A DNA stretch of 60,472 bases, filler included, from Sphacelaria rigidula (GCA_964200075.2; 10 parts of 10 records of this genome joined end to end with filler, not necessarily neighbours in it), one strand, 5' to 3'; numbered from the whole stretch's first letter, positions 27,201 through 60,472 are shown. The notes: generated by a model from the letters alone, not told the origin. Program-made: numbers and translations.

Positions 27201-29838
27201 CGGCCGCGGCTCGCATGACCCGGTCCGCTTGCAAGGTTTGTCTGACATGCGGCGAACACAAACAGCAGCAGAACTAATGCAATTCTTTCACGCAATGAAC
27301 TGGTTGCGTACCTCGTCGCCACGTATGGCCGAAGTAGTGGCGCCCTTGCGCGTTTTCCTAGAAGAACTCATGGTGGAGGTTGCAAGGCGCACGATGCGGG
27401 TGGCCAAAAACCGGGTTATTCCGCCCGCATCGTGAACGGAGGACAGGCTGCAGGCATGGGCGGAAGCGAAAGATCTCGTGACTCATGCCGTGACGCTGCT
27501 CATCCCCGCCCCGGTTGCCAGGTGCTGATGTTTCCGGATGCATCCGAGTGTCATTAGGGTAGTTTTGTAACGCAGGTGCCTGATGCAGAAATGCAACAAC
27601 GGTTGCCGGTTGAAGCATGACGATGAACCGCTGACTTTTCTTAGTGGTGATTTCAAGGGTTCAGAGATGCGTTGAGCAACTATTGACAAGGAAGATTGTG
27701 CTATCGTGAGCACTTTTCGTCGTCTCGAGCATCTCTTGTGGAATGGCGTGCACATTTTCACGGATCACCGAGATGTAGCGTACATTTTCAACCCGGAGGC
27801 ATGCGTGACGCCTGTGTCGAAGGCGTTGGCACAGCGATTGTCATATTTCGGGTGAAAGTAACGCGTGGGGTGGCTTGCTGTCGCGCTGGGTAAATATTCC
27901 AACTATGCCCGCGCGAGCTGTGACTGTATCTGGTCCGTGTGAAGCGGATAACTCGATGCCGTCGAAATCTGTGGTCCGCCAAGCTCAAGAACTTGGGGCC
28001 ACTGATGCGGATGTGCAATCGAGTCGGACGTTGGTACTGCGATTGTGGACAATGAAGGTTTGTTTCGTGTGCATGTACGTGGCCGAAACGTGTTGTGGAT
28101 TCCCAGCTCCGACAAACAATTGCACATACGTTTGGTTATTTGTGCGCACATGCGCAATGCCGGGCATCGCGGTGTGGCTGTGACGCTCGTGCGCTTGCAA
28201 GCGTTTTGTGTTTGGCAGGGAATAAAGACTCAGCTGCGCGAGTTTGTACGACAGTGTCTTCACCGTGATGATTCTAGTGCCGGTGATGTTGTTCCCCGCC
28301 CGCTCGGCGAAACGGTCCATGGGACCACGCCGAATGAAGTCGTTCATTTTGACTTCTTGTACGTGGGCGAGAGTGGCCCGCTAGCTTCCCAAGATTTATC
28401 GGAGGATGCTGGGTTTCGATACATTTTGGTAATCATCGATAATTTGAGCAACTTTGTGGCTCTGGAACCAGTAGCAGTGTGTACTGCCGAATCGACCGCT
28501 GCATCTTTGCTGAATTGATGCAAACCTTTGGGGGTGCCGTGTGTGTGGGTGAGTGATACCCCCACGCATTTCAAGAATGCGATCTTGGTCCGATCGCGAG
28601 AGGCATTGCACGTTGACCACCGGTATGGGGTGGCATATTTTCCGTGGTCTAACGGCACGTGCGAACGCATGGTCGAGGCAATAGTTCGTGCTCTTCGATC
28701 TATTCTTCTCGAGCAGCGTCGAGAGGTGACCGAGTAGGTGGACGTGTTGCCGGCTGTGCAATGGGCGTTAAATACAGCCTATCGCCGTCGGTACGATAGT
28801 ACGCCGTATCACGTGATATTTGGTCGTGCACCTCGGACGTCTTTCTCGGTGTTGGCGTCCTCATCGGCGGGGGAGTGGAACTGTGATGTCTTAGACGATG
28901 CGCAACTGAAGATAGTGTTGCAAGTAGTTTTGGAGTTGCAGGAAAGTTTCCGCGTTCAAGTGCAGGAGCGTGTTGCCGCTGAACGTGCGCGTAGACGTGA
29001 GGGGTCTTCGTCGGGGCTGGAATTGCCGAATTTCGAGGTAGGCGACTATGTTTTGTATGCACGCGAGCGACGCCCGGGAGTTACGCCGAAATTGATGGCG
29101 ACGTGGACTGGTCCGTGGAGAGTGGTTGGTGCTCGTCACCGGCATGTGTTTGGATCCGAAACATTGTTTCGGGTCGTGTTCAGACCGCCCACGTAACTCA
29201 TCTGCGTTTTTATGCAGACTCACAGCTTAATGTAAAGGCAGACGTGAAGGATGTGTTTCAGCACGCCTTCAACCAGAGGCAATGTCAGATGGCTGGGATT
29301 GTTCGCGTGGCAGAGGCAGAGGATTGTTCGTTGATCGACTTGGTCGACTGGGTTGGTTTTGAAGTCGAGGAGCGTACGTGGGAGCCTTTGAAAAATATTT
29401 TGGAGGCCGCTCCGGAATTTCCCAAAAAGGAGTTGCGTAAGGTGCGAGTGACTCCTTCCATTGCTGCTCGCATTACGCGTGAGTTTGGGATTCAGTTGTG
29501 ACTTGCTAAATCGTTTTGACGTTATTTTCTGAGTGTCAAGCTTGTTGCTCGATTCTCGTCCAACGCGCTTTGGGGGTGCTGTGACGGAATCACGCCGTCA
29601 CGTTGAGTATATAGTGATGATATGGATGAGGACTTGGGATCTGTAGTGATGATATGGATGATGACAGGGACACAGGGGTGATACCCCGATGTGGTTTATG
29701 GAGCGTGTGTGCCTGTGTGGTACTCCAGAATAATAAAAAGGTGTTGTGAATGCTAATAACTGAAACCTGAGGCCAGTGAAACGGGGTGTCCCTCAACAGC
29801 ATTAGACGCTGCAGTACTAGTAACCTGCTGGCATCACA
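24231..29838 (+). mobile_element. Near full-length decayed Ty3/gypsy chromodomain retrotransposon (gag-PR-RT-RH-INT-CHD, 3' LTR; 5' LTR outside contig)
   Basis: Gag 24610-25350 with degenerate knuckle YFQCDQAGHYARKC; protease DSGA at 25921; RT KLDLLQGYWQ and WVDD (27040-27051); RNase H PDASECH; integrase HMRNAGH..C, VVHFDFLY, WVSD, NGTCER, WTGPWRV; chromo-like LVDWVGFEVEERTWEP; multiple stops and frameshifts. Confidence 0.96.
29580..29838 (+). repeat. 3' LTR of contig-5 gypsy element
   Basis: TGTGAC...ATCACA termini after GGGGGTGC; position and internal motif match LTR 4970-5230. Confidence 0.8.
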
Positions 29839-42100: not shown

Positions 42101-43460
42101 GGAGCTATTTGTCCACGTGTGGAGCTTCCTCTCTGCCGTTACTCCTCCGGTGGCATCGTCATTGACATGCGTGTACACCGCATTCGTTCGGTGCACCTAG
42201 CCGCAACTGCTTACCCTGTTAAACGCGAGGGTAGGTCACCTGCTGAAAACAGCCAATCATCTATGTTGAGGATGGTGCTTTTGATTGAGGATGAGAACCC
42301 GNNNNNNNNNNNNNNNNNNNNNNNNNNNNNNNNNNNNNNNNNNNNTTAATTAATTAANNNNNNNNNNNNNNNNNNNNNNNNNNNNNNNNNNNNNNNNNNN
42401 NTGTGAGGTTTGGGAATTCATAGTGAGGCCCGCATATAGCAGGTAGTGCAGCACGACTTTCAATCTAGCAATGTGGCTGTGGAATGTAACACTAGGCCAC
42501 ACGATATCATCCAACTAACTTTTAACACCGTTGGCAGGTAGCAATATTTCGGATGCAATCCGGCGAAAAGTCGCTGGCAACACCTCAATCCAGGACGCAC
42601 AGCGCTGATACTGCCACAAATGCCCTCCTGCATCAGGAAAGGCTGTGAAGAGTGGATTCTCCTTTGCCACCTCCACCTGGAAGAATCCACCTGCCAAGTC
42701 GATCTTCGTGAAATACCTCGATCTGGCCAAACCGCTGCACATGATTTGCATGTCTCCCAAACCGTCGCTGTACGACTCGAGAAGTTCATTCAGCCCACGG
42801 TTATCTTGACATAGCCGCAAACGCCGTCTTTCTTCCAAACCGTGACACATACGACTGCCCACGCAGGCGTCGAAGGCTCGGTAACCCCTTGCTCAATCGG
42901 CATCTGGACTTTATCTTGAATTGCTGCCTATTGTTTCGGCGAGTAGCGCCTAGTACCACCGACAAATGGCCGGCATTTGAAATCTATTAGCCGCAAACGC
43001 CAAGGCTCTTCACGAGTTGCCTTTACTCGCTTAGGGTCCACAGCAAAAAGGCCCCCTTCGTTAAATTTTCTCAACAAGGCCAACAACTGTGTCTTTTGTG
43101 AAGAGCTCAACTGTCCCGTGTCTGCCTTCAAGAGACCCACTCCCCTGGATTCAGGTACGTCTCCCTCACACTCCCCCGATGACTCGGACAGTGGTTGAGG
43201 GTGATTCGAGACAGTCTCGGCGTCCTCCAACGCCGACTTCAGCGTTGAGCCAGAATCGGGGACAAACAGACTCTGTAATCACTTGTGATCCCGGACATTA
43301 ACGGCCACGACCTTGGCTACAACTCTGCCCTTACGCAAGAGATTGAGCACGTTGCATACAATATGAAGCTGAGGATCCCACCATTGTACTCATCTAGCAA
43401 CACCAACCTGCCCCTTTTGATCTAAATCGAAGGCAGTCCGAGGTTTGACCAACACGAGTT

Positions 43461-43716
43461 GAGTGATGCTACGGTAGGGGTACACAAATACTTTCTGAGG
43501 TTAGAATTGTTAGGAGCCCTTTATTTCATCCACAACACAACTTATGAAATATGCGAGAGTACGCCAGGATTACTATTCCAATGTGCCGGGACTATCCCGA
43601 ACAAATCTGCAACCGGGGATGCCCTGACTCATATTCTTGTGCGTCTAGAATTTTAAGGAGCCCCTGAATCAGACGAAATTTCGCGAAAAAAGTGCACCCC
43701 TACCATAGCATTGCTC
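43461..43716. mobile_element. 256-bp MITE, GAG termini, 4-bp TSD AGTT (Sola-like); partial copy at ~22617-22718
   Basis: GAGTGATGCTACGGTAGGGGTACAC / GTGCACCCCTACCATAGCATTGCTC; AGTT on both flanks. Confidence 0.85.
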
Positions 43717-45604
43717 AGTTGTCGTTCCTGATGCTGGGGGCCCTGCACATAACCTGGGACTAGCTTACTCACGAAGCCCCCTAACTGTACGTCCTCTGTC
43801 AGGTACAACAACCACTAAAGAGTAGCGTCGCCATCCCATGCAACTCTAAGGTCTCTCCAAACACTATGCCATGCTGTCATGTCATTTTCGTACGTCAAAA
43901 CATTCGTGGGATCCTCACTGGACACGTCCGGCTTGGCAGCATAGAAAAGAGTCCACGCCACTATAGCTACTGGTTGCTGTGGTAGGCGGTGTTAATGCCT
44001 CGCGTCTTGGGAATATGGTTGACACGAACCTTACCCACGGCGCGTCTGGTGAAGGCCAACATCCTGCTTGCCCCTCCAAACGGTAGGATGCTCTCGTCCT
44101 TCCCAAAAAACTAGTCCCGGCAATAAACCCGTACGGTAACCCATTAACTACCCTGACCCATATTGTTATTTCTGTCCTGTGGGTGGGAACGAATGAGAAC
44201 TATCGTGAGACCTATGACCCCCATAGGAGGCACCTTACTGTTGTTGGTGATGGTGACCTTCAGAAACCCTGTTCCCTGTTTATGCAACCTAGTTGCTTCA
44301 TAACCTCAGGTAAGTTACGACGTTCACCAACGCTTCGATGCGTAGCGTCCTCCCCCAGCACCGGTGTCCCGTAACACCGTTACTGGTTGGCGGTGGCTGC
44401 TCTTGCTGTGGTGTCGATCTACAGCTTGTACCCACAGCTTCTGCGCATCTTCCTCCCGTGCTTGAGCCAACTTTGGTGAAATATTGTTGTTCTGCCTCCC
44501 CCAGTGTGCACCAATGGCGTCTCCCGTTTTCTTTCATTGTACGCGGTCCCCTGGGGCGGCAGTCGCCAGGGCGTACCCACATTCAGAGTGAGAAGCCGAG
44601 TCAGTCTTGTCGGCAGTCTCTGCACCGGACTTCTTATCAAGTTGGGATGACGTCGATCTCTTCGCAGTGAGTTCGCGCAGAAAAGCAACAAGCTGTTGCC
44701 CCCGTCCGGGAAAGGCAATGGCAGTAGTCGCTGGCTTGGAGTCGCTGTGATCAAACCCCCATCATTGCGGGCGCTGCCCATAGGATCGAACAAATGTCCT
44801 ACTTGTAGACTCGTGAGTCGATCTGTGACGGACGTTTTCTTTCGGTGTGCTGGAGTGTCGGGTTGCTTGTAGTAGCCGAGGGGAAGCCGCTGAGCATCGT
44901 GAGATTAACTACAAGCCCCATTCTCGTGATTCTTACAGCGACAACCGTAGGCGTGGTTGAAGCATACGCCCAGCAGGCGCACTGCAACGTCACGTGGTTC
45001 TTGTGACGCGCCTGGCGTTGGTAGGAACGCAGTCTGTGGCGCGTCGCCCCGCGTATCAAACCGGACTCGCTGCTTAGGAGATGCATCCCGTTGGCGTTTG
45101 AGTCCACCCTTAGCGGGCGGGGGAGCGTCGAACGCTTTGCCTTCTCTTGGAGTCGATGCGTTTTGGTTGGTCAAGGCCGCTGCCGTAACGAACTCTTCTT
45201 CGTCTTCCTGAATCCCAGATTGTCCCCGCATATCTTTATCCAAAAGGCACGCCTCACTTACAGTCAACCCAGCCAGCGTTGACGAAGGGCAGTGAACCGA
45301 GTTACGGCGACTGCTGCTCGGTCTGCAGTCTGGCCATTGGCTGTGGCCACCTCGTAGTGGCCTTTCAGGGCCGAGACAAAACCATTGTAGGTGCGGTGTG
45401 CAATCCGCCCTCGCTCTCGCATTATCGGGTTGGTGGGGTCACCCAGATCTACCGGTATCCGGCGCATTTCTTCTTCGAGTACCTTGTTGGGGAACTGTAG
45501 CAATGTGTTGGTAACCAATAGCTGTGTTGCCTCTGGTATGATCAGGCAGTGGAAGTCCGCGTACAACTGCAGAATTGGGGTTTCTGGTTCTCCTCTCCAG
45601 GAGT

Positions 45605-45853
45605 GGCACTTTCTACGATAGCCCCCCCCCCAAAACCAGCCCAAAGGTGTCACGAAAAAATGGCCATACAGCGCCTGATGTTTGGGTTCGGGCTGCATGA
45701 AGCGCTTCATGTTGGCAACATTGGCGAGAACGAGCCCAAGCGTGGGAATGCCCAGCTGCTCCTTGTGCTCGGCTTTTCCCATTTAGATTTACGTGAAGAT
45801 TTTGCCTCCCAAAATCATGTACTTTTGGGGGGGAGACCATCGTAGGAAGTGTC
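45605..45853 (-). mobile_element. MITE family A copy with perfect 4-bp TSD GAGT
   Basis: Removing the element plus one TSD restores the reading frame EDEYS|WRGEPETP. Confidence 0.92.
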
Positions 45854-46614
45854 GAGTATTCGTCTTCAGCCAGGTGCGGTGTGGCGGCAGCTATTGTCTC
45901 CGCCATGGTCAACAAGAGTAGGCGGTGAGCTGCTGCTAAGTAGCTCTCGTTTTTGAGAAATTTCATGTTTCTCAATGCCGCTTTCGCATAACCTTGGCCA
46001 TTTCTTACTCTTCTTCTGCAACGAGTTTGCGAAGCCATTCGAGCGCAGTAACATCTCCGAAAGGGACTCTCATCATGTCACCAGACACTGGCGGTACATC
46101 TATACGATCGTGATCCTCCTGCTCGTCATTTGGGTATAGGTGGCTGAGATCGGTGTCATGGCATTCATTAGTAAATCTCGGCGTCGATCTGTATACTAAT
46201 CCGCCTGTGGTGCCAGCAGCGGTCCAGTTAGATGGGCATCAGAGGGCATACACCACTTCCCCCCTTCATATGCCGACAGCGTTGTCCGGAAACGGTTCAG
46301 GAATAAAACCACAGAATTCCGGTACGTCGAGTCCCCTTCCTAATCTACCGGCCCTCTTTTACACACAATGAACTTTGCATATTTGGCGCCCAACAACTTG
46401 GCAAGCATGGATGCCTGACGGGATACAGCTTCCTGGTGTTGGAGCAGCACGTTGGACCAACGTTGATCGAACATAGTTCCATGAGGTGCAGAGCCGCGAG
46501 GTATCGTAGCAGCGTGCGGCGTCAACCCCTCGATCCTCGCTTACGCGAAAGGAGTGGCACTGGATGGATGCAATGACTCATATAGTGGATTTTCATACAT
46601 ATCCATCGGGCTCG

Positions 46615-46863
46615 GATACTTTCCAAGATAGCCCCCCTTAAAAAAAGTGCACGGTTTTGGGAAGCAAAATCTTCACGTAAATCGAAATGGGAAAAGCCGA
46701 GCACAAGGAGCAGCTGGGCATTCCCACGCTTGGGTTTGTTCTAGCCAATGCCGCCAATATGCGGCGGTTCAAGCAGCCTGAACCCAAACATCGGGCGCTG
46801 TATGGCCATTTTTATCGTGACACGTTTGGGCTGGTTTTGGGGGGGGCTATCGTAGAAAGTGTC
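46615..46863 (+). mobile_element. MITE family A copy
   Basis: Homologous to 2370-2618 along its length; flanks CTCG/TTCG. Confidence 0.9.
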
Positions 46864-47296
46864 TTCGGCGAAACCACGTACCTAGAGTGACGCTATGGAG
46901 GTAGCGGAGGCGGAGGCAGCTGGGCACCGGATACGTACCCTACTGGTTGCGCCTGGTCTGGGATGGGCTGTACCCACGAAGACCCAGAAACTGGAATCAT
47001 CCGCGCAGGAGGCGGAGGAACGGCCGGTTGCGAAACTTGTTGGCCACCAGCAGGAGGTGGATTCCTCTGCGGTGCTTGAAAACCTCGGTGCAACGAAGGC
47101 GCAGGAAATTGCTGATTTTGAGGAAAAGGTTGTGTGGGAGGCGACGGAACGGCCTCGGCAGGGTTTTCAACGACTACATGTGGGTGTCCGACGTTGGAAG
47201 CGGGAGGCTGCTGTCCTGCCGGGTAAAAAGGCTGAGCCTGAGGGTTCAGAGGGTATCCACTCATATTTGGCGATTAAAAAATAATCTGCTATGTGG

Positions 47297-48357
47297 TTAT
47301 CCGCCATCGTCTGAATTAGTGGTTAGCATGAAAGAGTCATCCGGACTACAAGTACAATCAGCACTTAATCCATTGCCCCGGATATGCCCTGAAGCCGTCA
47401 CGTCACTGGAAGTGTGAAAACTCTCACAAATATCAGCGTTACTTCGAACGCTCTCAGAAGCAGCTTCTATTTTGGAGTGCAACACTGCCGCTAGCCTCTC
47501 TGGTACCAGCGGCATCGTGTCCGTTCTCACCTCTCCATGCTCAACCAAGCCCCTCTTTGGGTTTTCGCTCGGTGTCGCATCTGTACACAACTGCGCAGGC
47601 TTCTGTCCGCCTGTATAAGTGGTTACTGTCAGGCCCTGGATCCTCCCCGTCTTTTACGTTTTCGAAGTTATCTGTGGACAAATTTACCGTGCTCTCGTAG
47701 GATTCTTTCACAAACCACAGTATGCCTTCGGTAAACAGATGTCTTCCGAGGGCCTTACTGCGTATTTGATTCGAGGTACATCGCTCCAGTTTTTTTTTGG
47801 CATGAATATTCCTCACCACCGCAGCTACAATCTTAGTATCCTCATGCGACCCATACAATACTTTCCTATTACGGTGGGCCAGCGAACCACTGCGGACGTG
47901 TCTCAAGTTCACAGAGACCCACTAACAGCCCGGAATCGTTATTGAGGTTCAACATTTTTATGAGGTTTAACGGACCATCGGAATTTCATTTTCTTTGTTC
48001 AAGAGGCTCTCAAGTCGCAAGCGGTTTCGACCATGTGCCCCTAACCCAGAAGTTTCAGCACTGGAGCGAAAGCATAGTGGTGTGCAGTCCAATCGAAAAG
48101 CCGCCCTCATTCATTGTGCCGCATCTATCGAGCAACCCTTACGTCTAAGCGCTGCGGAACACGTAACAAAGCATGCTGAAAACATGATTTTTTGGACTAG
48201 TCGTCGAGTTTTCCAGCGCCTCTTGTTGTGTATCTGAGAGAGACTTCACACTGTTGCGCCGGCGACGACCGCCGTCAGCGAAACGATCCAATGCGGCGGC
48301 AGACGCCAACGATTTTCGAAACGCAGCGTCATTCAGCAGTCTGCTGAGATATACCAT
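47297..48357 (-). pseudogene. Disrupted ORF of unknown function immediately upstream of putative Gag
   Basis: Overlapping or adjacent same-strand ORF pieces 48145-48357, 47541-47912, 47297-47590, ending ~30 nt before the Gag ATG; no introns evident. Confidence 0.4.
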
Positions 48358-51300
48358 CNNNNNNNNNNNNNNNNNNNNNNNNNNNNNNNNNNNNNNNNNN
48401 NNTTAATTAATTAANNNNNNNNNNNNNNNNNNNNNNNNNNNNNNNNNNNNNNNNNNNNCCCCCCATTTTCCATGGCGATCATAATATTGGTGATTTGTCC
48501 ACGTGTAGTAGTGGAGTTCAAACGAACATGATTTTTTTTTCTTTGTAAATATCAGCGTTCCCTTCCATTTTTCGCGGACAGTTTTCGGTTGAGCATCAAG
48601 CAACCTCGCTCAAGATGAAAGTCCTCAGGCGTGTTGTCCGCGATCTACCTTAGCCACTCCATTCCGCGGCATTTGCCACTCGCGCGAGGCTTGTAAATAT
48701 ACCAGTACGTCGAGTATCCCGGCCCGCTTCAACTACTGTTGTCGTTTTTAGGACTCCTGCCAGCAGTCCAAGACAGGGACACGGGTAGCGACGGAGCTTT
48801 CAGCTCTGGAATCCTTGATTTCGTCGGTTGTGAAGATTTTGCCAGAATAGACGCTCTTGTGGAAGTCATGTTGGCAAAAAGTAGCGCCGACAGTCGAACG
48901 TGGAGAGCCCGCAGGGACGCGGTTGTGTACACATCATTTACTCTGGTTGATCGGTTTGGGGGTGAGTTGTGAAGCAGAGAAATCGACGAATGGCGAGTGT
49001 ATACTGGGTTATTCGGACGTCATGTTGTGTGTTGTTTCAAGCGTTGTGGCAGCAACTGGTCATTCGTGGACTATACCTCGAGACGAGTCGAGTGACAATA
49101 TTTATTTTCTTATTGGAGCAATCTGTATCAGCTTGTCGGGGTTTTCACGCTGGGACCTCGGGAAACTGGTAAAGAGCGGAAAAACTCTGAAATCTTCTTC
49201 GACGATTTGTTTTCTCATTCGTAGCACCCATATCTACTATACTGCCATGTTTGACAATGATCGGCGCTTTTCTACAATATATACTAGGGAAAACGCCAAG
49301 AGGCTTTCTGAGTCTTCGATGCATATTATCGGTGGAAATCCGACTATGCCAAAACCCTATATCACCGAAATACCACGTTTTGGGGCATGACTCGATCCCA
49401 TACACACCGTTTTCAAATCTGTTCTTCGCATCATAATCCCTACCTGATGCGGTTACTAAGGTTTGATCCGTGATGAGATTGGGTATGAACTGGGTCGGGA
49501 GTCGGCAGTTCTACTTTCAGATTAATTCAACGGCCCCTGATGGGCCGAGAAACATTTTCAATACGAGCGCCACGGCAAAGGATGCAAGAAAAAATCTGGC
49601 CATGTCACACTGTTCGCTTGCCCGTGGGGGCCACTATGATCTAAAATCTATTTTTATCGGGTCGGTTTTGCGTTCTGTATCTAGTGGGGAAAATGGCATC
49701 CGCCCTGAACTAGCCCGTAGATGAGGGTTGTTTCGTGTCGTACCTTCCGCTGCGATGAAATCAGCGTACACCTACGGCTACATTTAACTCGAATAATGAA
49801 TCAGTTTTGTTGCGCATGCCTCTGTCGGTGAAGAGGACACTTGCACTGCCCGAGTAGGTATTGACTGGGTGAGGTGTGCGTCTCCTTGTGTCCCTCGTCA
49901 GGCTTGTTAGGTCTGTCTTGTTACTTCCTGTTTCGAGCCGTATCGGTGGATCTCGCTGCCAAGTGCAGTGTTCTACCAGTGGCAAGCTTGCATCTGTTCC
50001 ACATTCAACGTCTGATAACGTCACATTCAACAGAAGTCAGTGTTGTTTTTCAGCCTTGGGACAGCTGACGTGGAGGAACACCGTTCCGATGGGGCTTGTC
50101 ATGGCTGTAGCCTCCGCGAGCTCAGCCGACTGTGACGACTTGACATATAGATGACGTTGATGAGCATAAACATCAGTGAGGCATTTCCCTCCCCGTTATT
50201 GATACCAGAAATCTCGGGATGGGTCAATAAAAAGGCGGCGCGCTTGGAGCGCTTCCATTAAAAACACTTACTACCGTGGAACTTGAGTGTGTTCATGATG
50301 AGTTGACAAATAGATGCCTCTCCCGCGCTATTCATTTGCTCACAACATACGAAATGTTGTCGCACCTTAATTTTTCTGAGATAAATACGATTCCTGGATC
50401 TTGTTGCGTTTGCCGCTGTGACGACTTTGATGGGACGTCTTCTCTCTTTTTTTTTCCTTGACGAAAGGAGGAAACCTAACCCAACACTTCTCGCTTGTGC
50501 TGACCTATGCAGTAACGTCGAGGCCCATGACCTATTGGAAGGCCGTTGTGGCGTGGTGCTGCCTAGCTAGACAGAGTCGCAAGAGATGCAAAGTGACTGT
50601 GAAACTCGCTTGCGTCGTGCAGAAGAAAACGAATGTCAGATGGTTTTTGCCGGCGCTTGTTTGGCCAAAATAGTATATAACACTCAGTTTCTACAGCAGT
50701 CAGAAATTGCAGCAGATGAAATCAACTGAGACCGTCGAACCTGCGCTGCGATCGCACTTGCGACAAGAGCAATACCTAGTCTGCGTCATCTGGGACACAT
50801 ACGTCAAACCAGACTAAAATCGGATTCAAGGTACTGCTGGCAGTTCTCTGCCAGTTCCCACTACTCTGCATCAACTGCAAGCTACGCGGCTGACCTACAT
50901 TGCAACATACAGTTCAAATTTTCAAATTGGTTGTTGTCTCAGGCCATTTCAGATTCGGCATTGGATTTTTGTGGCAGAAAACTGTCTCGTTTTTTTCGTA
51001 ATATTTTTTCAGAATCAATCAAAACTTCTCAAGAACCAATCAGAACTTGAAAAAAAGACAAGCATAACTTTTTAAACAACAGGCAGAACTTGAAAAAAAA
51101 CAAGCAGAACTTTAAAAAAAACTGCCTAGAACGTGACCCCTCCCACATACTTGAATCTAGTGTGCGTATGTAGGTTTGACCCCTCCCACATACTTCAATG
51201 TGGTGTACGTGTCATGGTTCGATACTTACCGCCTGGGTGGGAAAGGTGCCAGTTCGTGGGCACCTGGGCTATCGGGCCCAAACACAATCATGTGTATCGA

Positions 51301-51397
51301 ATCCATTGAGCTCGACTTCACCAAGTGTGGAGTCAGCCAACCTTCACCAGTCGTCAGGCGGCATGCCCGTGAGCCGCGCAGGCGGCAGGACAACATA

Positions 51398-51668
51398 TGT
51401 TCCATGAAAGACAGGCTTGCATTGTGAGAAGACCAGAGACTCCTCTGATATCGCAGTCCGTGATGGCGTTGATGCTTCTTGTATTATCGGCAAGAGGCTA
51501 GTAGCTGCTGATCGCGGTTTTAGACGAGTTCACTGTAGTAGCTTAGGGTCAGGCAATCCTAGAAACGAACCAAACCCAGAAATGGCCCATGACATGTCGG
51601 GCAAAAGAAAGCAAGAGTATGACGCATGGAGTCTACTCGACTGGACAATAACCAATAAATCCGGAACG
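51398..51668 (-). repeat. 3' LTR (271 bp)
   Basis: Minus-strand (C for T)GTTCC...GGAACA inverted termini directly after the polypurine tract (~51669-51683). Confidence 0.7.
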
Positions 51669-53447
51669 TCCCCCCAGCCTTCTAATAAGGCTAAGCAAAA
51701 TAAGTATGTTAAGGGCTGGGAGGGCCGGGAAACGAAGCCTGTGCATCAACACCTGAAATAATCAAACGAGAACAACCTGCGAATTAAGTTTGCAGGGGAA
51801 AACTCGGTATCTAATAGATACGTAAACCCTGTTAGACAGGGTAAACCCTATCCGTTAGGGAAGGAAAAAAATCTCTAGCGCCATTTCAAGTCGACAGAAA
51901 CCGCAGACAAGTACGATCGCTGTCGTTTCCCCGGGATCTCAGTTAGACTGGAGAATGATTAGCTAATTAGCTTCATCGCGCGTCGACACTCCAGATAAGT
52001 TACACTGAATTCCGGGGTAGTGCGGGTCTTTAACCACATCCAACGTTGGTTGGATTCGCTTAAAACAACCTTTCCGCGAACGAATCAAACAGTTTCAAGA
52101 GTGAAGCTTTTGGGAAGTGCTCTTCTGTAACTACTGACGCTTATACCACGAAGAATATAGGTCATGCGCCTTGGATCACATATTTATTCGTATGTTACAT
52201 GAATGGAAAACGACAGTTATCAAGATGACAAAATGAAAAGAGAGGTATACAGGTACTTTTATGTTGAAAAATTAGATAAAGCTGAGGATAGAGCCCATGC
52301 GCCTTGGCTCACACATGTATTTGTATGTTACAAAATAGGAACCAGACGCGGCCGAAAAAACACCCGAAAAGAAAACGAAAAAAACAAACAAAAACAGGCA
52401 CACTCGCAAATCACATAAACAGGACACTCGCAATTCATGACTGAAGAGTACGGTACCCCTTTCCCTGTGCAATGATATCCTGTACCATTTCATATACTGA
52501 CTACTCTTGGACGTTCCCGCCGCAGTCTGAAGTTGGGGTCCTTTTTCCCGCGTTAAGCGGTCTAGTTCCTGGCGGGATAGCTCCTCCCACTCTCCGTCTT
52601 CGTATCATACTCGCCAAAAGCGACTCCCGTAGTCATACACCCAACCCTTGACCTTGATACCTTCAAAGTCTTTCCAGAAGGTAACACCTATAGGGAAAAG
52701 TTTCAAGGGGTCACTGCGCGACAGGGGAGCGGGGCGCTTCTTGGAGTGCGAGGGCGGATCGGGTGCAACTGCCAGGTTGTACAGGTGCCGAAGTCCGTGG
52801 AAAGCGTCTAGTCCCAAAGGAGAAAAGCTGTCTCGAAGCTGGCTCTCCGGTAACCAGTCTGACACCTTTCCCTCCAAAGATCTGGCCTTGTATTCCCAAT
52901 GCTTCGTGTCCGTCATGGAGTAGATATCTCGGCGGTCCACTGAGGTGACGAACTCGTGAGTTTGGGGAGGAGTGGTGTTGGGCTTCCAATCTGAACCTCA
53001 TACGGGTTGAGCAAACTCGTCGGCTATCGAGTGCCTGCGGTGCGGTGGACGAGCATGAAAGGGTTTCACGTCCGAAACTGCTACCCTACGTGTACGGCGT
53101 TCACGACCCTGCATGACCATTTCTACACTGAGGCCGGTCATCAGCACTTCCTTCACTCTCCAGGGCCCCGAATACCTTTCGTGTTGCAGTTTCCTACCCT
53201 TACCGTCCCGGTGTATCGTGCTGTCTGATTTGCGTACCATGACTAGATCCCCTTCTTTAGCAGACACTCCGGGGGAGGGTCTCATGATGGAGGCGTTCAT
53301 TTTCACACGAGTCGATGATTTCGCGGCGTGTCTCTTCTCCAGAGCTAGACGTACCTCCTTGAGGTTTTGTCTACACTGCTCCACGAAGGCATCTAGTCCT
53401 TCACTCGATTCCATCTCCTGATGAAGGGGAATGAGCGAATCTAGAGA

Positions 53448-53747
53448 CAACACTGTTTTCGTGAGATGTAGAGTACAGCGCTGATTGAGAGTGGAAAGCG
53501 GTCAATTAATGAATTAATCGTCTCTGTTCCGAAATGCCCCTCCACGAGGCCCAACATGCTTTCTGCAGCAACTCACCACTGAGGTCCCTGATATCCCTGA
53601 GTAGGATATCGATGTGAAGCTGTAAGCACGCGCTAGTGATGGAGGCAAAGGAAAGCACACACGGAATGGAAAATTGGCCGAGTTGACGCGAATGATCGAA
53701 GCCACTCTCAATCAGCGCTCTACTCTACATCTCACGAAAACGTTGTT
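53448..53747. mobile_element. 300-bp MITE inserted in integrase, ~45-bp TIRs, 3-bp TSD AGA
   Basis: GTTTTCGTGAGATGTAGAGTA.AGCGCTGATTGAGAGTGG inverted at both ends; removal restores FGRKPRTSLDSLIP. Confidence 0.85.
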
Positions 53748-54284
53748 AGACGTGCGGGGTTTACGACCGAACAAAAGCTCAAACGGGGATATGTCTGAGG
53801 GCAGGAAAACGTCCGGCAAGGTACGCTTGATCCAGAGCGCTGGGGAGACATACTCGTCCCATCTCTAGGGCCACGACTTACACAGCTCCGCCAGCATGTC
53901 TAGTAGCCATCCCCCCAGCCTCTCGACTGCTCCTTGTCCTCTGGGGTGATCAGAGGGTCCAAAAGCAATGTCTGCTTTCAGCCACCTGCACAGGTGTGTC
54001 ACCACCTCGGCCCTAAATTCCTTTCCTCCATCAGTGCGAATTTTGTGAGGTACGCCAAATGTCGAGCATCGCCCAGCAAAGACGCGAGCTACACTTTCAG
54101 CCTGCCTTGCTTGGAGTGGGAAGCCGAATGAATACTTAGAGACTCGATCTACGATCAAAAGAATGTACTTGTTGTTCGTAAGCGATGCAGTGTCTATGCT
54201 CAGCAAGTCCATCTCCAACTTCCCATGGGTCTACGGCTCGTCCTGGGGTCATTGCAACCTTGCGGCTACTGGCCGTGGAAACCA

Positions 54285-54415
54285 TGTATGGCCGTGATAT
54301 GGGGGGTCCAACACTTTAGACCGTATCTAGCAGACAGAAAGTTTAGACCAGTCACCGACTGCTCCGCGCTGACATGGTTGCTCCGCAGTGGTGATCTGTG
54401 TCCGAAGCTTCACAG
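54285..54415 (+). pseudogene. Gypsy RNase H fragment, inverted relative to the adjacent integrase
   Basis: CMAVIWGVQHFRPYLADRKFRPVTDCSALTWLL is the conserved gypsy RNase H core. Confidence 0.85.
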
Positions 54416-54633
54416 NNNNNNNNNNNNNNNNNNNNNNNNNNNNNNNNNNNNNNNNNNNNTTAATTAATTAANNNNNNNNNNNNNNNNNNNNNNNNNNNNN
54501 NNNNNNNNNNNNNNNGCCTTAGTCGCTCGACCATTGACCACGCATCCCTTTCGAGACGGAGCAAGGGGAGGGGTTGAAACCATACCGGCAAAGATATACG
54601 CGTACATGTACATGAAGATATATACTGACTCAC

Positions 54634-54755
54634 TGGTGAAACTTGATGTCCTCTAGTTCCACGGCCTTCCCCTTCCCCGATGAGCGGCCGCTTGACTCGA
54701 ACAGCAGCTTGTCGTTGAGTCCCAGCTTCAGCTCCGGCATACCAGATAAAAAGGA
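54634..54755 (-). CDS. AP1M1: AP-1 mu exon 6 (gene continues beyond the contig)
   Basis: tag|SFLSGMPELKLGLNDKLLFESSGRSSGKGKAVELEDIKFH ca|gtgagt. Confidence 0.95.
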
Positions 54756-55070
54756 CTACAGTCAAAAGCAATACAACACAACAAGCACCGCATGGTCAGT
54801 GACAAAGTGGGTCGAAGCAGGAATATGACGTTAAAAAACGCCAACAATTGCGGACACTTTGACAAAAAAAAAACGGACGCATTGACAGCAACAGCAACGA
54901 CCGAATCATACACAGCAAGGGTAGCAGCTGCCGCGAGGTGGAACAAGCGACGAGGACGATACCGAAGAGCACCATCAGGTACAATACACTACAGTCATGT
55001 CCAAATAAAATAGCACCTCCACGCGCGTAGCAGGTACCCGGTACCTCATCTCGAAGGCTGCACATATTCT

Positions 55071-55288
55071 CAGGGTTGGGTAGGGTTCCGCAAGTACCTT
55101 GGGATTCCTCAGGACTCGTAAAACCCAGTACTCCAGAGTACCAGGAAGAATCACCCCCCAAAATACTGGGTGTCGATCTCAGTGTATTCAGTACAAATAC
55201 CCAGTGCCCTGAGTAACCTGTAGTACCTACCGACAGCCGAGAATACTGGCTACCTCAGAGTACTCCAGGTATCGACTACCCAACGCCT
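55071..55288. mobile_element. Intronic MITE-like element with GTAC/AGTACC motif repeats
   Basis: CAGGGTTGGGTAG...CTACCCAACGCCT inverted ends. Confidence 0.55.
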
Positions 55289-55590
55289 CTGCTTTTCACC
55301 GCCGAAAGCGTGGGTACGTGAGTAAACGAAAGTAGTTGATGTTGTTTGACGAAAACTTGACGCGGTGCGGGAGTGTTAGTCATGATCCAATCCACAAGAC
55401 CAAAATGCAAGGCGTGCACCGGGGAGAGATGGGTTGGTATCTTTAGACCATTAAACCATCACATCATTAGACTATGAGACCACGGACTCGTCCCGAGGGA
55501 GGGAACGGATTCAATGTATAACAACGACGACAAAAAACGTCGTACTCATGCTCTACTCCATCTTGAGCATGTTCAGAGGGCTGCACCAAC

Positions 55591-55671
55591 CTTCATTTTG
55601 ATAGCACCCACGATTTCCGAGTGCAGCACTGTGCCGTTCGAGGACTCGAGCAGGTTGAGCTTCTCCACCAC
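55591..55671 (-). CDS. AP1M1: AP-1 mu exon 5
   Basis: cag|VVEKLNLLESSNGTVLHSEIVGAIKMK|gttggt. Confidence 0.93.
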
Positions 55672-56191
55672 CTGCACCACAAGCATCCGCATCGAGAGCA
55701 CCATTAGCGGGGGAAATCATCCGCCAGCTGGACAGCGCTCATGGCACAGTCTACTCGGGTTTTGACTCATGGGATAAATTTTCCCCTTATTGCGTTCTAC
55801 CCATGCAGGCACAGAATTTGGCTTTCGCAGAAAGTCAACAAACGTCCTTAGTACTATGCTCCCTGACGAGGCATCCAACATACCACGGATTGACAAATTT
55901 ACATGTAGCATGTAGTGCCATGCTCCATGACGAAACATCCAACATCCAACAGATTTGACGAACTCAACGAAGGCATGCAATATACCACAGAATGACAAAA
56001 TGGTCTACTTGCCAGATCGCCCCGACGATGTCTCATGACTGGGAAATCCAAGCACTACACTTCATAACGCTTTTACCCAAGCCGCACAAAGAGACAGGCC
56101 AACTGGCACAGAGCAAGTCGGTCGCACATGGCGAAATAATGGACCGGGTCACATTCCTTACGAGGTAAAAACAGTACGGTCGAAGACTCAC

Positions 56192-56299
56192 GTCGAGGAA
56201 AATCTCGTTCTTCCGGTGCTTGATTCCCTCACTTCGCCAGGACACGGCATTGGTCAGCGCCACCGGGGGCCGCGGTGCGGCCTCCAATCGATTTCCCTC
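56192..56299 (-). CDS. AP1M1: AP-1 mu exon 4
   Basis: EGNRLEAAPRPPVALTNAVSWRSEGIKHRKNEIFLD|gtgagt. Confidence 0.96.
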
Positions 56300-57884
56300 C
56301 TATGGTACACGAAAAAAATAGGATAATCATATATCATGTCCAAAAAGCAAGGGCAGCAGGCAGAGCACAGCACAGTCGCGGCAGCGTGCTCAGACTGTGC
56401 AAACATTACAACTGTGGTAGAAAGTATGGCGAGGTAGGGAATGGGTACACGGCGGCATTCCGGGAACTCTGGAGTATCAAGTATGGCAGGGTGTAAAGTA
56501 TGAAAAGGGAATACTGCAAAAGTAGGAACGAAAATCTTCATGAGAATAATCCGAGGTCATATTGAGGTACGTTTGATGGATACCAGTTGCACTGTCATGT
56601 ACCATTTCGGCCCCAGTTCGTTCCGACCGAAGAATCTCGCCCCTACTTGTCCGGATTCCAAGTATATTGGTACGAGTACGGCACGGTATTTCAGGTGGAT
56701 GCCCTAGAGTACCAAGTATATCTGTTCGACCGATGACCCAGACAGTGTACAATACTCGGAATACTCGGCAGCGCTTACCCCAGGTACCCTGGCAAGCTCG
56801 GTTCTGCAAATGCTCTGCAGACGCAGGGTACCTTGCCTTCTCCACCTTTGCAACACATTCTTTCGCAGCTAGCACTGGTGACATGAATTCACTAGCGACT
56901 GCATGTGTGTCCGATACATGACAGATGTACGTGGAGTCCCCATCAAGCCACACATACGTCGACAAAGATACATAATCAACTCCGATAACCCATCCAGCGC
57001 CCGAGCCCTTGATTGTACATTACACGGGCCTGCATTTTTTCAAGTTTGGAAGGCTTGTTTCTCATATAGAAACAACGCCAGCATGAAGAAAAGGCTGTCA
57101 CGCATACGCTGTCTGTCATAATTACTCCGAATCACCTACCAGCAGCAACATATATCGCTTTCTCAGTCCAATAAGCAAGCCGCGATGATCGTTGTCAGCA
57201 GTATGTGTGGCCATGCATGTGCCAGGATGTCAGTAAACACAACGTACTCGTGCACACAGGAGAGAGGGGGGGAAACACGCTCACCTCCCTCCCTCAAGCA
57301 TGTGATAAAAGCTGCTGCTGTCGGCGAAAATATTTCGGTCTTTGCGAAACCCCAGCTAACCGCCCCCCTCTATTTGAGCCTGCACCTTAACCAACCTTCG
57401 CATAATCGCGGGACTTGCAGCTGACAAACTCGGAGAGCAGAAAGCATGGGCACACCCCGGGTTGACTGCAAGGTCCAGCTTTTCATGTTCACCCCCACTA
57501 CTACTACACCATGGATGGGACGACAGTACACGCACACTACACCACTACCGTTCACCCTGTGGATCGAAAACCCAGACGGTGTCCTCCACGTACAGAATAT
57601 TTCTCCGACGGTCTGCGGGGAGCGCTGATAGTCATCATCCAGTGACCGACTTCGATACAAAGGGCTGGGCGGGTACAGGAGGACACATGTAGCCGTCTTT
57701 TCAAGCTACGGATTCGTCTCCTGAAGCGGGGGACGCGTGAAAAGTCAAAGGCACGACCGAGAAATGACCGAATCATATCGAGACTGTTTTACATTATTCA
57801 GATTTTGCCACATATCCGGGAATGAATATCGGCACTGTTCGACGTATTTCAGATCTTGCCAGATCTTTGGGGCGGAAAGCTAAC

Positions 57885-58034
57885 CTGGGTGATGTATTCT
57901 CTGAGGATCTTAGACTCCATGGTCTGTGGGTACCCGAAGTCCATGGTCTCGTCTAGTAGCTCGTAGATGATGACAAAGTTATCCCTGATGGACTCCTCTT
58001 CCAGCTCGCCGAAGTAGTCCTTAAATACGTCCAC
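57885..58034 (-). CDS. AP1M1: AP-1 mu exon 3
   Basis: VDVFKDYFGELEEESIRDNFVIIYELLDETMDFGYPQTMESKILREYITQ. Confidence 0.97.
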
Positions 58035-58741
58035 CTATAAAAACCAGGGGTGGAAGTTAGGGCCCCCTCTCCATATAAGTCCGTTGCAACAAAAATAAAA
58101 TGGATGATTCCCGGAGTCACCTAAAGGACCTGCCTTTTGATGCGGTGGAAACACATCCAGCAAGGGAACCATGTACCAATGTGGACTTCGAAAAGGTTCC
58201 ACAAAAATCGAACTATAACACGAACAAATTCGTCTTCGAACATGTCGACGCTGTGGTGTGAACTTGTCAAAACCGATAGCATTGTTGATAGAAGTGTGAA
58301 GGCCCATACCTTGGATAATGACAATACATGGTCAATAGTTGCGATAGACAAAAAATGTACTGCGTAATGTGTAGACCTATTTCAACTATTGTCGACCGAC
58401 AGTACTTGAAATATGCCAACACGTTACGCAGTACATTTTTTTTGTCTATTGCAACTATTGACCATGTACTGTCCAGAGTGTGTTGAGTGTCACGAAACAA
58501 TTCAGTCGTCAAGGATTTATTATCATTAATATTATCATTATTTCAGTTGCTAAGGATATGAACGTAAAATTGGAACCACGGAACAGTGACGGCGTCTCGT
58601 ACGATACACAAGCAGGCACAATCTGCGACGAGATACGCGAGAGAAAAACGAGAAGAATAGGCACAAGCTGTTCGAGATATAATACCAGCTTTACCGCAAC
58701 ACGAACCACCGGAACGCCGAGCACAATCATCCTCCACTCAC

Positions 58742-58898
58742 CAGCTTGTACAGGTAGACAAGCATGAGCGCCACGTTGCTGTTCCTCTTGGTAACGCTCA
58801 TGAGTATCAAGTTGTTATACTGCACGTACACGTATGTCACACCCTCCACAGTGAACACGGGTTTTTGCTCCATCTCCTCCCGCTCCTGAATATGGTTG
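58742..58898 (-). CDS. AP1M1: AP-1 mu exon 2
   Basis: NHIQEREEMEQKPVFTVEGVTYVYVQYNNL...NSNVALMLVYLYKL|gtgagt; phases consistent. Confidence 0.95.
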
Positions 58899-59681
58899 CT
58901 GCATGAACACACGCGCAAACAACAATATTGATTGATTAGCTGCTTCATTGTCGCACACTACTTGTCATTGACCCTCGAGGGACCCAGTCTTGCCTCGGTC
59001 ATTATCCAAAACACAGACGTACCCAAGAAAAACAAAACGAAAACAGGCGCGGAAGAAAAGTGAACAGAGCAGAAAAGAAATTACAGCAGACAACAAGACT
59101 AGGGTGAAAAAAAACGAAACGAAAATTGGCTCGCCATTGGAACATGACTTAAGCTCGAAAAAGATGTCGCGTCAAAGCACATGCACTCACACCTCAACGG
59201 GAAAAAACACAAGGAGCCTTGGGAGCAGATAGCGGGACATCTATTTCGACCAGACTATTTTGGGTATGAGCTCTCGGCAATGAGACCATGAAAATTGCCA
59301 AGAACACGAAAGAGAATTGTACACGAGGAGATGCCACACGTTCAAGATTTTCGAATGAACTCGATCGCGTGCTGCACCATCAATAATGTAAATAAACGCC
59401 GCGGAAGTATCAAGCGACATAATAGGTATCATCTGGAGTGTGGATGTTTTCAAGCGACGTGCAAGTGCTGCATCCTCGAACACGTAGCCACGGGAAAGCT
59501 AGGGCAAGCTCCATCCTCTCGACAAGTCACAACAAAAAACCTATAGCAACCAATCGTCATTCGCATGCATGATTATGCACACAATGATCGTCTTCATAAT
59601 TCAAAGTAGTATCCAAGTACAAATACCGTACACACGACATCGTAGTATCCAACAACAGATGCCGCACACACAGAACAAAAC

Positions 59682-59782
59682 CTGAATGTTTCCGACGCCG
59701 ACATGGGGACATCTCCTCGAAAATTCCGGGAGATGATTATCTTCCCCTTAAGGTCCATGATGAAAAGCGCCGACGCCACCAT
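59682..59782 (-). CDS. AP1M1: Clathrin adaptor AP-1 mu subunit, exon 1
   Basis: MVASALFIMDLKGKIIISRNFRGDVPMSASETF ag|gt. Confidence 0.95.
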
Positions 59783-60317
59783 ATTTACTGCTCCACAAAG
59801 AAAAAGTCCACGCGAGGCACCCCAGTCGAATAGCAAGCACCCCCGAAGATACTCCCCAGGAGCAGGGGATGCTGTAGACAAGAGAAACACCAGCGAAACA
59901 ACACAAGGTGTGTAGTAGGAGCAGACAGAGGGACAGGAAGAGAGACGAGGGGTTAGACGAAAGCTATGTGAGTATATGTGTATTTCGTCACAGGTTAACA
60001 TAGAAAGATTATCTACGAGCTGCTATCAAGCAAAGGTCCGTCACAAACGCATTTTAAAGCAAACGTTCCCTTCGGACCTTCTGCTAAGACGATTTGCGCT
60101 AGTCGACAAACGGAGTGCTCGTGCGGGAAGTAGCTGTTCACCAATTGTACCGCCTCTGCTCGTTGTTGCTCACTGTGCGGCTTTCCCGGTCGTGACACGT
60201 CACAGGTGCACACCACAGTCGGGACGCAAGGCTGAAACGAGCACTCATGACAAGGGGGTCGACCACCATGGTTGTTGGAAAGACGGACGTATCACATTCT
60301 TTTCCCCAGTATCACTT

Positions 60318-60357
<40 letters not shown>

Positions 60358-60365
60358 CATCACTA

Positions 60366-60405
<40 letters not shown>

Positions 60406-60472
60406 CATATTAGCTCCATGTTTCGAATCCGTGGTAACTGAGTACAAGGATCATACCAGTATACCCATAACC

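Follow-up and report, generated by a model that had tools for sequence, protein, structure and literature searches.

A dead Ty3/gypsy integrase remnant from Sphacelaria rigidula ends in a predicted chromo-fold module and a Tudor-type module

Results

A two-module tail behind a gypsy-type integrase

In a 60,472-nucleotide stretch of DNA from the brown alga Sphacelaria rigidula (GCA_964200075.2), referred to here as the window, we found on the minus strand the remains of a gypsy-type integrase that runs into a C-terminal tail made of two small modules, a chromo-fold module followed by a Tudor module. We give a probability of roughly 0.7 to the reading in which the remnant corresponds to the 3′ end of a dead Ty3/gypsy long terminal repeat (LTR) retrotransposon from the Gypsy-10_Ec32-like, Tudor-bearing lineage found in brown and yellow-green algae, with a tail that would tether the integration complex to nucleosomes. 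This role is proposed by analogy with chromoviral chromodomains, and such tethering would bias where new copies land. The Tudor barrel would be the likelier reader of a chromatin mark. The chromo-fold module would more likely serve as a scaffold or adaptor in the window's subgroup, because no aromatic residue stands there at the one alignable position of the chromodomain cage.

The window consists of 5957-base pieces, one every 6057 bases, joined by linkers of 44 N, TTAATTAATTAA and 44 N (for example at 48359-48458 and 54416-54515), and neighbouring pieces need not be contiguous. The piece bearing the integrase remnant extends over 5957 bases, from 48459 to 54415, and its context stops at both ends. 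Within it, a single minus-strand frame running from 53501 to 52272 holds both the integrase C-terminus and the tail. Read in order, this frame contains the integrase C-terminal part with the motif SGPWRV, a TGA at 52998-53000, a stretch with HWEYKARSLEGKVSDWLPESQL, a Pro/Ser/Lys-rich linker, the segment FPIGVTFWKDF...RFWRV and a second TGA at 52605-52607, which is directly preceded by FPIGVTFWKDFEGIKVKGWVYDYGSRFWRV and directly followed by YEDGEWEELSRQEL. An initial annotation of this DNA had read an integrase followed by a tail on the minus strand, interrupted by a TGA at 52605-52607, and the frame matches that reading exactly. For the analyses below, the tail was taken as a 156-amino-acid (aa) read with X at stops, and a longer read comprised 409 aa. 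The features of the locus are as follows; they include a miniature inverted-repeat transposable element (MITE)-like insertion.

52548..52715, minus strand: Tudor module, tail residues 95-150 (Pfam PF21743, AlphaFold2 model and VIA-align)
52605..52607, minus strand: in-frame TGA within the Tudor module (frame reading and the relatives' alignment)
52716..52766, minus strand: Pro/Ser/Lys-rich linker between the modules, tail residues 78-94 (model confidence and poor conservation)
52767..52952, minus strand: chromo-fold module, tail residues 16-77 (AlphaFold2 model and VIA-align)
52998..53000, minus strand: in-frame TGA that separates the tail from the C-terminal domain of the integrase (frame reading and identical contigs)
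53001..53447, minus strand: C-terminal region of the integrase, with its GPY/F-type motif SGPWRV (BLASTP against P0154)
53449..53747, no strand assigned: 299-bp MITE-like insertion (inverted repeat and direct flanks)
53748..54290, minus strand: remnant of the integrase catalytic core with three in-frame stops (Pfam rve and tblastn)
54279..54413, plus strand: RNase H fragment of this element family, opposite in strand to the integrase (tblastn and Pfam RT_RNaseH)

The tail belongs to the integrase in intact relatives

A phmmer search with the tail against 1.84 billion representative proteins returned 197 matches at E ≤ 1e-3, of which 45 reached E ≤ 1e-10. Together with the Pfam score given below, this places the tail's similarities well outside chance. 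Both modules were spanned in one aligned stretch by 28 of these 45, and the other 17 were shorter pieces. A set of 28 of the listed phmmer matches was then scanned against Pfam. Eight of those scanned (P0004, P0023, P0041, P0077, P0118, P0122, P0130 and P0145) carry gypsy-type integrase or reverse transcriptase (RT) domains N-terminal of the match; another eight are of cellular type, carry 3-8 PF21743 Tudors in tandem and align with the Tudor part only; and ten are short fragments with PF21743 alone or no domain. The remaining two were set aside. P0049, an immunoglobulin (Ig)-domain protein, is a spurious match. P0070 (Cladosiphon), in which a copia RT accompanies a Tudor-like stretch, was dropped as a candidate copia element with a Tudor, the sequence reading as a chimeric gene model with a fragment of the gypsy tail.

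Among the relatives is P0154, one of eight proteins of Ectocarpus sp. CCAP 1310/34 in the P0004 cluster. This 1881-aa gag-pol protein has RVT_1, RNase H, H2C2, rve and PF21743 domains and ends exactly with the tail. The window's read is collinear with P0154 to its last residue, with 52% identity over 305 aa (BLASTP, E 3e-90), and the alignment passes through both TGA positions; P0154 residues 1580-1728 represent the integrase C-terminal part of it. When the integrase C-terminus and the tail were used together as the query, 9 of 11 matches covered at least 92% of its length.

A profile search for longer proteins added 15 relatives, two further Ectocarpus proteins among them, and 12 of the 15 have precomputed rve, RT or H2C2 domains. 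The same profile search brought up a 994-aa transcript open reading frame (ORF) from the yellow-green alga Tribonema gayanum, in which both modules are present at residues 694-847. When the single tail served as query, a word-indexed search found no longer proteins, whereas the exhaustive and profile searches did find relatives. P0077 comes from the brown alga Nemacystus decipiens, and the two-module unit recurs in many further contigs. The closest relatives of the window are only 58-63% identical to it, and therefore its own species is not among the matches.

These alignments show that in intact relatives the integrase, comprising zinc finger, DDE core and GPY/F region, runs unbroken into a conserved tail of about 140 residues, and that the predicted polyprotein ends with this tail or soon after it. 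The initial annotation had looked to intact family members as the place where its proposal could fail, should they stop before this segment or lack it; they carry the segment. As read from the same predicted proteins, a conserved chromo-fold module always precedes the Tudor in this gypsy lineage.

Some distant members (P0122, P0130/P0167 and P0209, the Tribonema gayanum ORF included) have about 120-160 more residues after the Tudor. Trp, Tyr and Gly abound in these extra residues, which might form a third small barrel; Pfam returned nothing at E ≤ 1 for them in P0122 and P0130, the two that were scanned.

The second module is of the PTM/DIR17 Tudor type

On the 156-aa tail, Pfam PF21743 (PTM_DIR17_Tudor) matched residues 104-147 with 28.0 bits against a cut-off of 27.2 (E 1.9e-6), and the same family matched 29 of 42 members of the tail family at E ≤ 1. 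At a borderline score, Pfam thus supports the assignment of the second module to PTM/DIR17-type Tudors, as had been proposed from its motif. AlphaFold2 predicted a short helix, five short strands forming a small barrel and a C-terminal helix, with averages over 10-residue blocks of the predicted local distance difference test score (pLDDT) of 88-97 across tail residues 91-150. The strands lie at 106-111, 114-119, 122-124, 127-129 and 139-140, and together make up a five-strand SH3-like barrel.

For both modules, structural comparison combined an all-against-all search over 48,161 chains with a re-alignment of Foldseek candidates, from which the JMJD2B and PHF1 values below come. VIA-align placed the predicted Tudor module near the Tudors of JMJD2B (Z 5.8), PHF1 (5.6), SETDB1 (5.2-5.4), SMN (5.0), BAHCC1 (4.8) and MTF2 (4.8), and the list also holds the VapX antitoxin, designed SH3 barrels and KOW and PWWP domains. 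Aromatic residues are conserved at columns 111, 121, 123, 127, 128, 132 and 137 and acidic ones at columns 134 and 136, all of which are kept in the window; the strongest are W128 (37/41), D134 (34/39) and W137 (28/35). As judged from the alignment, these aromatic and acidic columns resemble a cage.

The first module has a chromo-like fold with faint sequence kinship to chromodomains

AlphaFold2 modelled the module preceding the Tudor as a sheet of three strands, two of them long and the third short, followed by one short and one long helix. This is the chromodomain arrangement of a three-strand sheet packed on a C-terminal helix. Modelled alone, it reached a pLDDT of 90.2 and a predicted template-modelling score (pTM) of 0.72. 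The whole tail, modelled on a 42-sequence alignment, had a pLDDT of 85.2 and a pTM of 0.44, and because of this low pTM the mutual orientation of the two modules is not defined. The linker between them has a pLDDT of 60-67 and poorly conserved columns.

The best structural match of the chromo-fold module was the SUV39H1 chromodomain (Z 6.8, root-mean-square deviation (rmsd) 2.6, 60/62 residues), and further chromodomains followed: Oxpecker (Z 6.4), Rhino (Z 6.2), Chd1 (Z 6.2) and Chp1 (Z 5.6, rmsd 1.8). Among the Foldseek candidates that were re-aligned, MPP8 gave Z 6.5 at an rmsd of 2.0 and CDYL2 gave Z 5.3 at an rmsd of 1.9, over 54/56 residues with 30% identity. Foldseek template-modelling (TM) scores of the single-domain model to CDYL2, CDY1 and CHD6 were 0.55-0.62, and among the Foldseek matches listed for it, those with a TM score of at least 0.5 on both normalisations were all chromo or chromoshadow domains. 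The chromo-like and Tudor-like folds anticipated by the initial annotation were therefore predicted for both modules, with Z-scores of 5-6.8 that are middling.

At the sequence level the kinship was faint. None of the 42 family members matched Pfam Chromo (PF00385) at E ≤ 1, and a PDB sequence search with the whole-tail profile gave no match at E ≤ 10. With a profile of the chromo-fold module alone, 12 PDB sequences were matched at E ≤ 10. Four are spurious and the other eight are chromodomains, including cpSRP43 (E 0.006 and 0.019) and CDYL2 (E 0.08-0.16). The label chromo-like given to this module earlier thus holds for the fold and does not extend to a Pfam-level match, chromoshadow domains moreover fitting equally well. 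The module is, as far as model and profile indicate, a chromo-like fold with faint sequence kinship and not a Pfam-level chromodomain.

Family motifs of the module are W-x-Y and F-H-A-L-W-x-L-Y, and its most conserved residues are W34 (29/31), Y36 (30/35), F66 and H67 (35/41 each) and W70 (27/40). In the alignment the long helix is the most conserved part and would fit a packing or interaction surface. Taken at the level of sequence, the conserved residues of both modules imply that they have a function. In the HMMER alignment to CDYL2, the family W-x-Y falls on the chromodomain W-E-Y and the cage tryptophan falls on family column 40, which holds Ser in the window. At this column P0002, P0003, P0013 and P0016, the relatives nearest to the window, have either Ser or Thr, and 17 of 37 relatives have Tyr. 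The family has no counterpart of the third cage position, which is part of a two-residue insertion absent from it, and the first is not alignable. A three-residue aromatic cage was accordingly not found in the window, where the single alignable position is Ser.

The window copy is a dead fragment

Upstream of the tail, on the minus strand, Pfam rve (PF00665) scored 34.7 bits against a cut-off of 32.6 at 53865-54230 and identifies the DDE core, which is 68% identical to P0154 residues 1423-1585 (tblastn). The SGPWRV of the window aligns with TGPWKV of P0154, and Pfam SH3_Tf2-1 gave a weak match on this GPY/F-type region (12.3 bits, E 0.19). In addition to the two TGA codons of the tail frame, three in-frame stops interrupt the core, at 54249-54251, 54231-54233 and 53865-53867, making five in the copy. 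The earlier inventory had listed the TGA at 52605-52607; it missed the other four stops, among them 52998-53000, as well as the 299-bp insertion and the 5′ break.

This MITE-like insertion has 46-nt terminal inverted repeats that are 93% complementary and is flanked by the 4-bp sequence AGAC at 53445-53448 and 53748-53751. Insertion and flank add up to 303 bases, so that the integrase is split without a frame shift. In four public sequencing runs, the depths of contigs covering the insertion add up to about 10^4, compared with about 10 on the flanks, and one sister-copy contig joins 53444 to 53748 without the insertion.

At its 5′ side, the integrase frame breaks at about 54280-54290 against the plus-strand RNase H fragment, which is 71% identical to P0154 residues 1029-1073 (tblastn) and scores 34.2 bits with Pfam RT_RNaseH. 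Judged from its position and orientation, this fragment marks a rearrangement or else a putative second copy lying head to head; the piece ends at the linker. No H2C2 zinc finger or RT-RNase H was found upstream on the same strand in the window's copy, where the RNase H fragment on the plus strand is all that there is of these parts. Relatives P0004, P0023, P0041, P0077 and P0154 do possess those parts, so that the window copy represents only a fragment of an element of this type. No long direct repeat was found within 44000-60472. With five in-frame stops, the MITE-like insertion and a broken 5′ part, the copy is dead and cannot work. It also departs from conserved family columns at positions 40, 62, 70 and 119.

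Relatives and contigs bear on the two TGA codons of the tail frame as well. All 39 relatives with a letter at the column of the TGA at 52605-52607 carry a residue there. Contigs identical to the window (0 differences; X2 record 11 and X5 record 27) span 52720-53303 and include the TGA at 52998-53000; the runs they come from may include the window's own sample, and these contigs are not independent support. Among the contig matches listed, only two reach across codon 52605-52607, both of them diverged copies (X1 record 3, with 10 differences in 175, and X5 record 25, with 11 in 111) that differ from the window inside the codon and are uninterrupted there. Such diverged sister copies in the public runs indicate that further copies, not quite the same as this one, exist in the genome. 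Parts of the stretch had no matching contig, an absence that carries no weight, and none of the listed runs is recorded as RNA.

Just downstream of the tail, contig depth rises to several hundred at 52272-52343 and 52416-52487, as against about 5-10 around them, from which we take these stretches to be repeated in the genome. A direct repeat pair, 52152-52208 and 52285-52341, lies near them.

Discussion

Relation to known elements

Four gypsy lineages have been described in Ectocarpus, three with putative C-terminal chromodomains and a fourth, Gypsy-10_Ec32, with a C-terminal Tudor (PMC12477816, Genome Biol 2025;26:320). According to the same paper, Gypsy-10_Ec32 (Repbase Gypsy-10_ES) is the first transposable element reported with a Tudor, and it has a homologue in Tribonema minus; a supplement table gives it 11,528 bp, LTRs of 636 bp, one full-length copy and many deletion derivatives (PMC12477816). 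The paper also states that the chromodomain-bearing lineages of brown algae are unrelated to chromoviruses, a statement that does not concern the Tudor-bearing lineage. Among the papers returned by literature searches on Tudor domains and LTR/Gypsy elements, judged mostly by title and abstract, it is the only report of a Tudor on a transposable element.

The window has a Tudor at the C-terminal end of its integrase, as is characteristic of this Tudor-bearing Gypsy lineage. It shares with Gypsy-10_Ec32, as described there, a Ty3/gypsy polyprotein, an integrase ending in a Tudor and a brown-alga host, the link being one of architecture and not of consensus sequence. The Ectocarpus proteins that carry the tail are the window's own named relatives (52% identity), and here the tail is present in Tribonema gayanum as well. 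The two differ in that the passages and the table row on Gypsy-10_Ec32 mention a Tudor alone, with no preceding chromo-fold module, and in that the window copy comes from another genome and is dead. The initial annotation did not know this architecture as a standard one for gypsy integrases; its Tudor half was already published in 2025, and the window is thus a dead further member of a published kind and not a discovery. The chromo-fold module may be the only part that is undescribed, as far as these passages and the table row go.

Cellular proteins with PF21743 Tudor arrays, for example P0140 of the diatom Corethron pennatum with a bromodomain and four Tudors, belong to the same Pfam family as the second module. 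They differ from the tail in having 3-8 tandem Tudors and no retroelement domains, and they match only query residues of about 82-150 and not the chromo-fold module.

Chromoviruses are Ty3/gypsy elements with a C-terminal chromodomain, such as MAGGY and Tf1, and work by Gao and colleagues in 2008 reportedly described chromoviral targeting to H3K9me chromatin. As chromoviruses are generally understood, they resemble the window in that a small chromo-fold domain follows the GPY/F region and presumably tethers the integrase to chromatin. In contrast, the window has no Pfam Chromo match, the cage residues are largely missing in its subgroup and a Tudor barrel follows. A further parallel is lentiviral integrase, which is tethered by LEDGF/p75, whose PWWP domain reads H3K36me3. 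There, as would be the case here, a Royal-family barrel couples the integrase to marked nucleosomes; the reader, however, sits on a host cofactor in LEDGF/p75, whereas here it would be built into the integrase.

Alternative explanations

Several observations weigh against a Tudor-bearing integrase with a nucleosome-tethering tail. All structural Z-scores of both modules are below 8 and are graded middling by the tool. Foldseek against the PDB returned no match at E ≤ 1e-3 for either model. Chromoshadow domains come within 1 Z of chromodomains for the first module (range 5.8-5.9; Rhino 5.9, Swi6 5.8). PF21743 is barely above its cut-off on the tail alone and falls below it in the 409-aa read (23.6 bits) and in P0154 (21.1 bits). 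By sequence, the Tudor module has no match among solved structures, the PDB search with a Tudor-only profile having given one spurious designed protein at E 4.5, and no ligand can consequently be inferred for it. Every search, moreover, used the tail as the query or as part of it, so that the share of close integrases without the tail is not given by these counts.

Against this background, the initial annotation's idea of a dual chromatin reader can be weighed. That both modules are methyl-lysine readers acting together, so that the integrase reads two histone marks at once, would agree with the membership of both folds in reader superfamilies, with the two modules always travelling together among the relatives, and with Tyr both at the chromodomain cage-tryptophan column in those 17 of 37 family members and at position 17 in 14 of 28. 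Yet the Ser or Thr at the cage column in the window and in P0002, P0003, P0013 and P0016, the absence of the third cage position and the lack of any Pfam Chromo match across the family speak against it, and Ectocarpus is stated to be without H3K9me1/2/3 and H3K27me3, the usual chromodomain ligands (PMC12477816). We regard this account as unlikely, and a second methyl reader is unproven for the window's subgroup. Somewhat less unlikely, though still improbable, is a tail that reads no marks and instead binds DNA, RNA or a host protein, or aids integrase multimerisation in the manner of retroviral SH3-like C-terminal domains and chromoshadow domains. Small SH3-like barrels have many roles, and VapX, KOW and PWWP are among the structural matches; the chromo-fold module has two helices after its sheet and matches chromoshadow dimerisation domains almost as well as chromodomains. 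This account sits poorly with the best Pfam family of the second module, a Tudor of multi-Tudor proteins of which one also has a bromodomain (P0140), and with the cage-like aromatic and acidic columns of that module. Finally, two stop codons between the parts and a rearranged locus could bring to mind a chance juxtaposition, in which host exon debris or another gene lies downstream of a broken integrase in this copy. Uninterrupted proteins of Ectocarpus, Nemacystus, Tribonema and further contigs, which have the parts in an identical order and frame, argue otherwise, and collinearity with P0154 to the last residue refutes it, leaving it next to no credibility.

A possible two-part targeting unit

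Where a retrotransposon lands shapes genomes, and built-in chromatin readers are the clearest known mechanism of landing-site choice. To our knowledge, the only readers that these elements were known to carry until 2025 were chromodomains and some PHD fingers. Building on the Tudor-bearing, nucleosome-tethering integrase preferred above, we tentatively suggest, as a possibility with the odds against it, that chromo-fold module and Tudor form an undescribed two-part targeting unit. Such a unit would predate the split of brown and yellow-green algae and would steer gypsy integration to a non-canonical mark such as H4K20me3, H3K79me2 or H3K36me3 in hosts without H3K9 or H3K27 methylation; its chromo cage would have been lost in some sublineages, with the module kept as a scaffold or dimerisation element.

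In Ectocarpus, H3K27me3 and H3K9me1/2/3 are reported absent, and H3K79me2 and H4K20me3 go with repression and repeats (PMC12477816); across five brown algae, H3K27 methylation is reported missing and H3K9 methylation only sporadic (PMC13076208). Because the usual repressive marks are thus absent or only sporadic in brown algae, a gypsy lineage in which a Tudor barrel follows a chromo-fold module whose cage is degenerate could lead to the mark that takes the place of heterochromatin there. A decayed-cage chromo-fold with a Tudor would fit the hypothesis of a lineage that reads some other mark. To this question the window adds a further, dead member of the lineage.

Other elements in the window

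Two ORFs on the minus strand, at 57849-58034 and 59594-60022, look by eye like exons from a gene for an adaptor-complex medium (mu) subunit; Pfam gave no match at E ≤ 1e-3 on these single exons. An ORF with Integrase_H2C2 at 2950-3813 on the plus strand is a further retroelement fragment, and a gypsy protease-RT stretch at 42416-44443 on the minus strand is 30-49% identical to P0154 residues 294-864. A second gypsy-type element occupies 26635-29500 on the plus strand, with RVT_1 at 26635-27432 and Integrase_H2C2 at 28006-28515. In another frame, at about 29340-29417, it has a sub-threshold Pfam Chromo match (21.3 bits, E 2.6e-4), a more canonical chromodomain tail.

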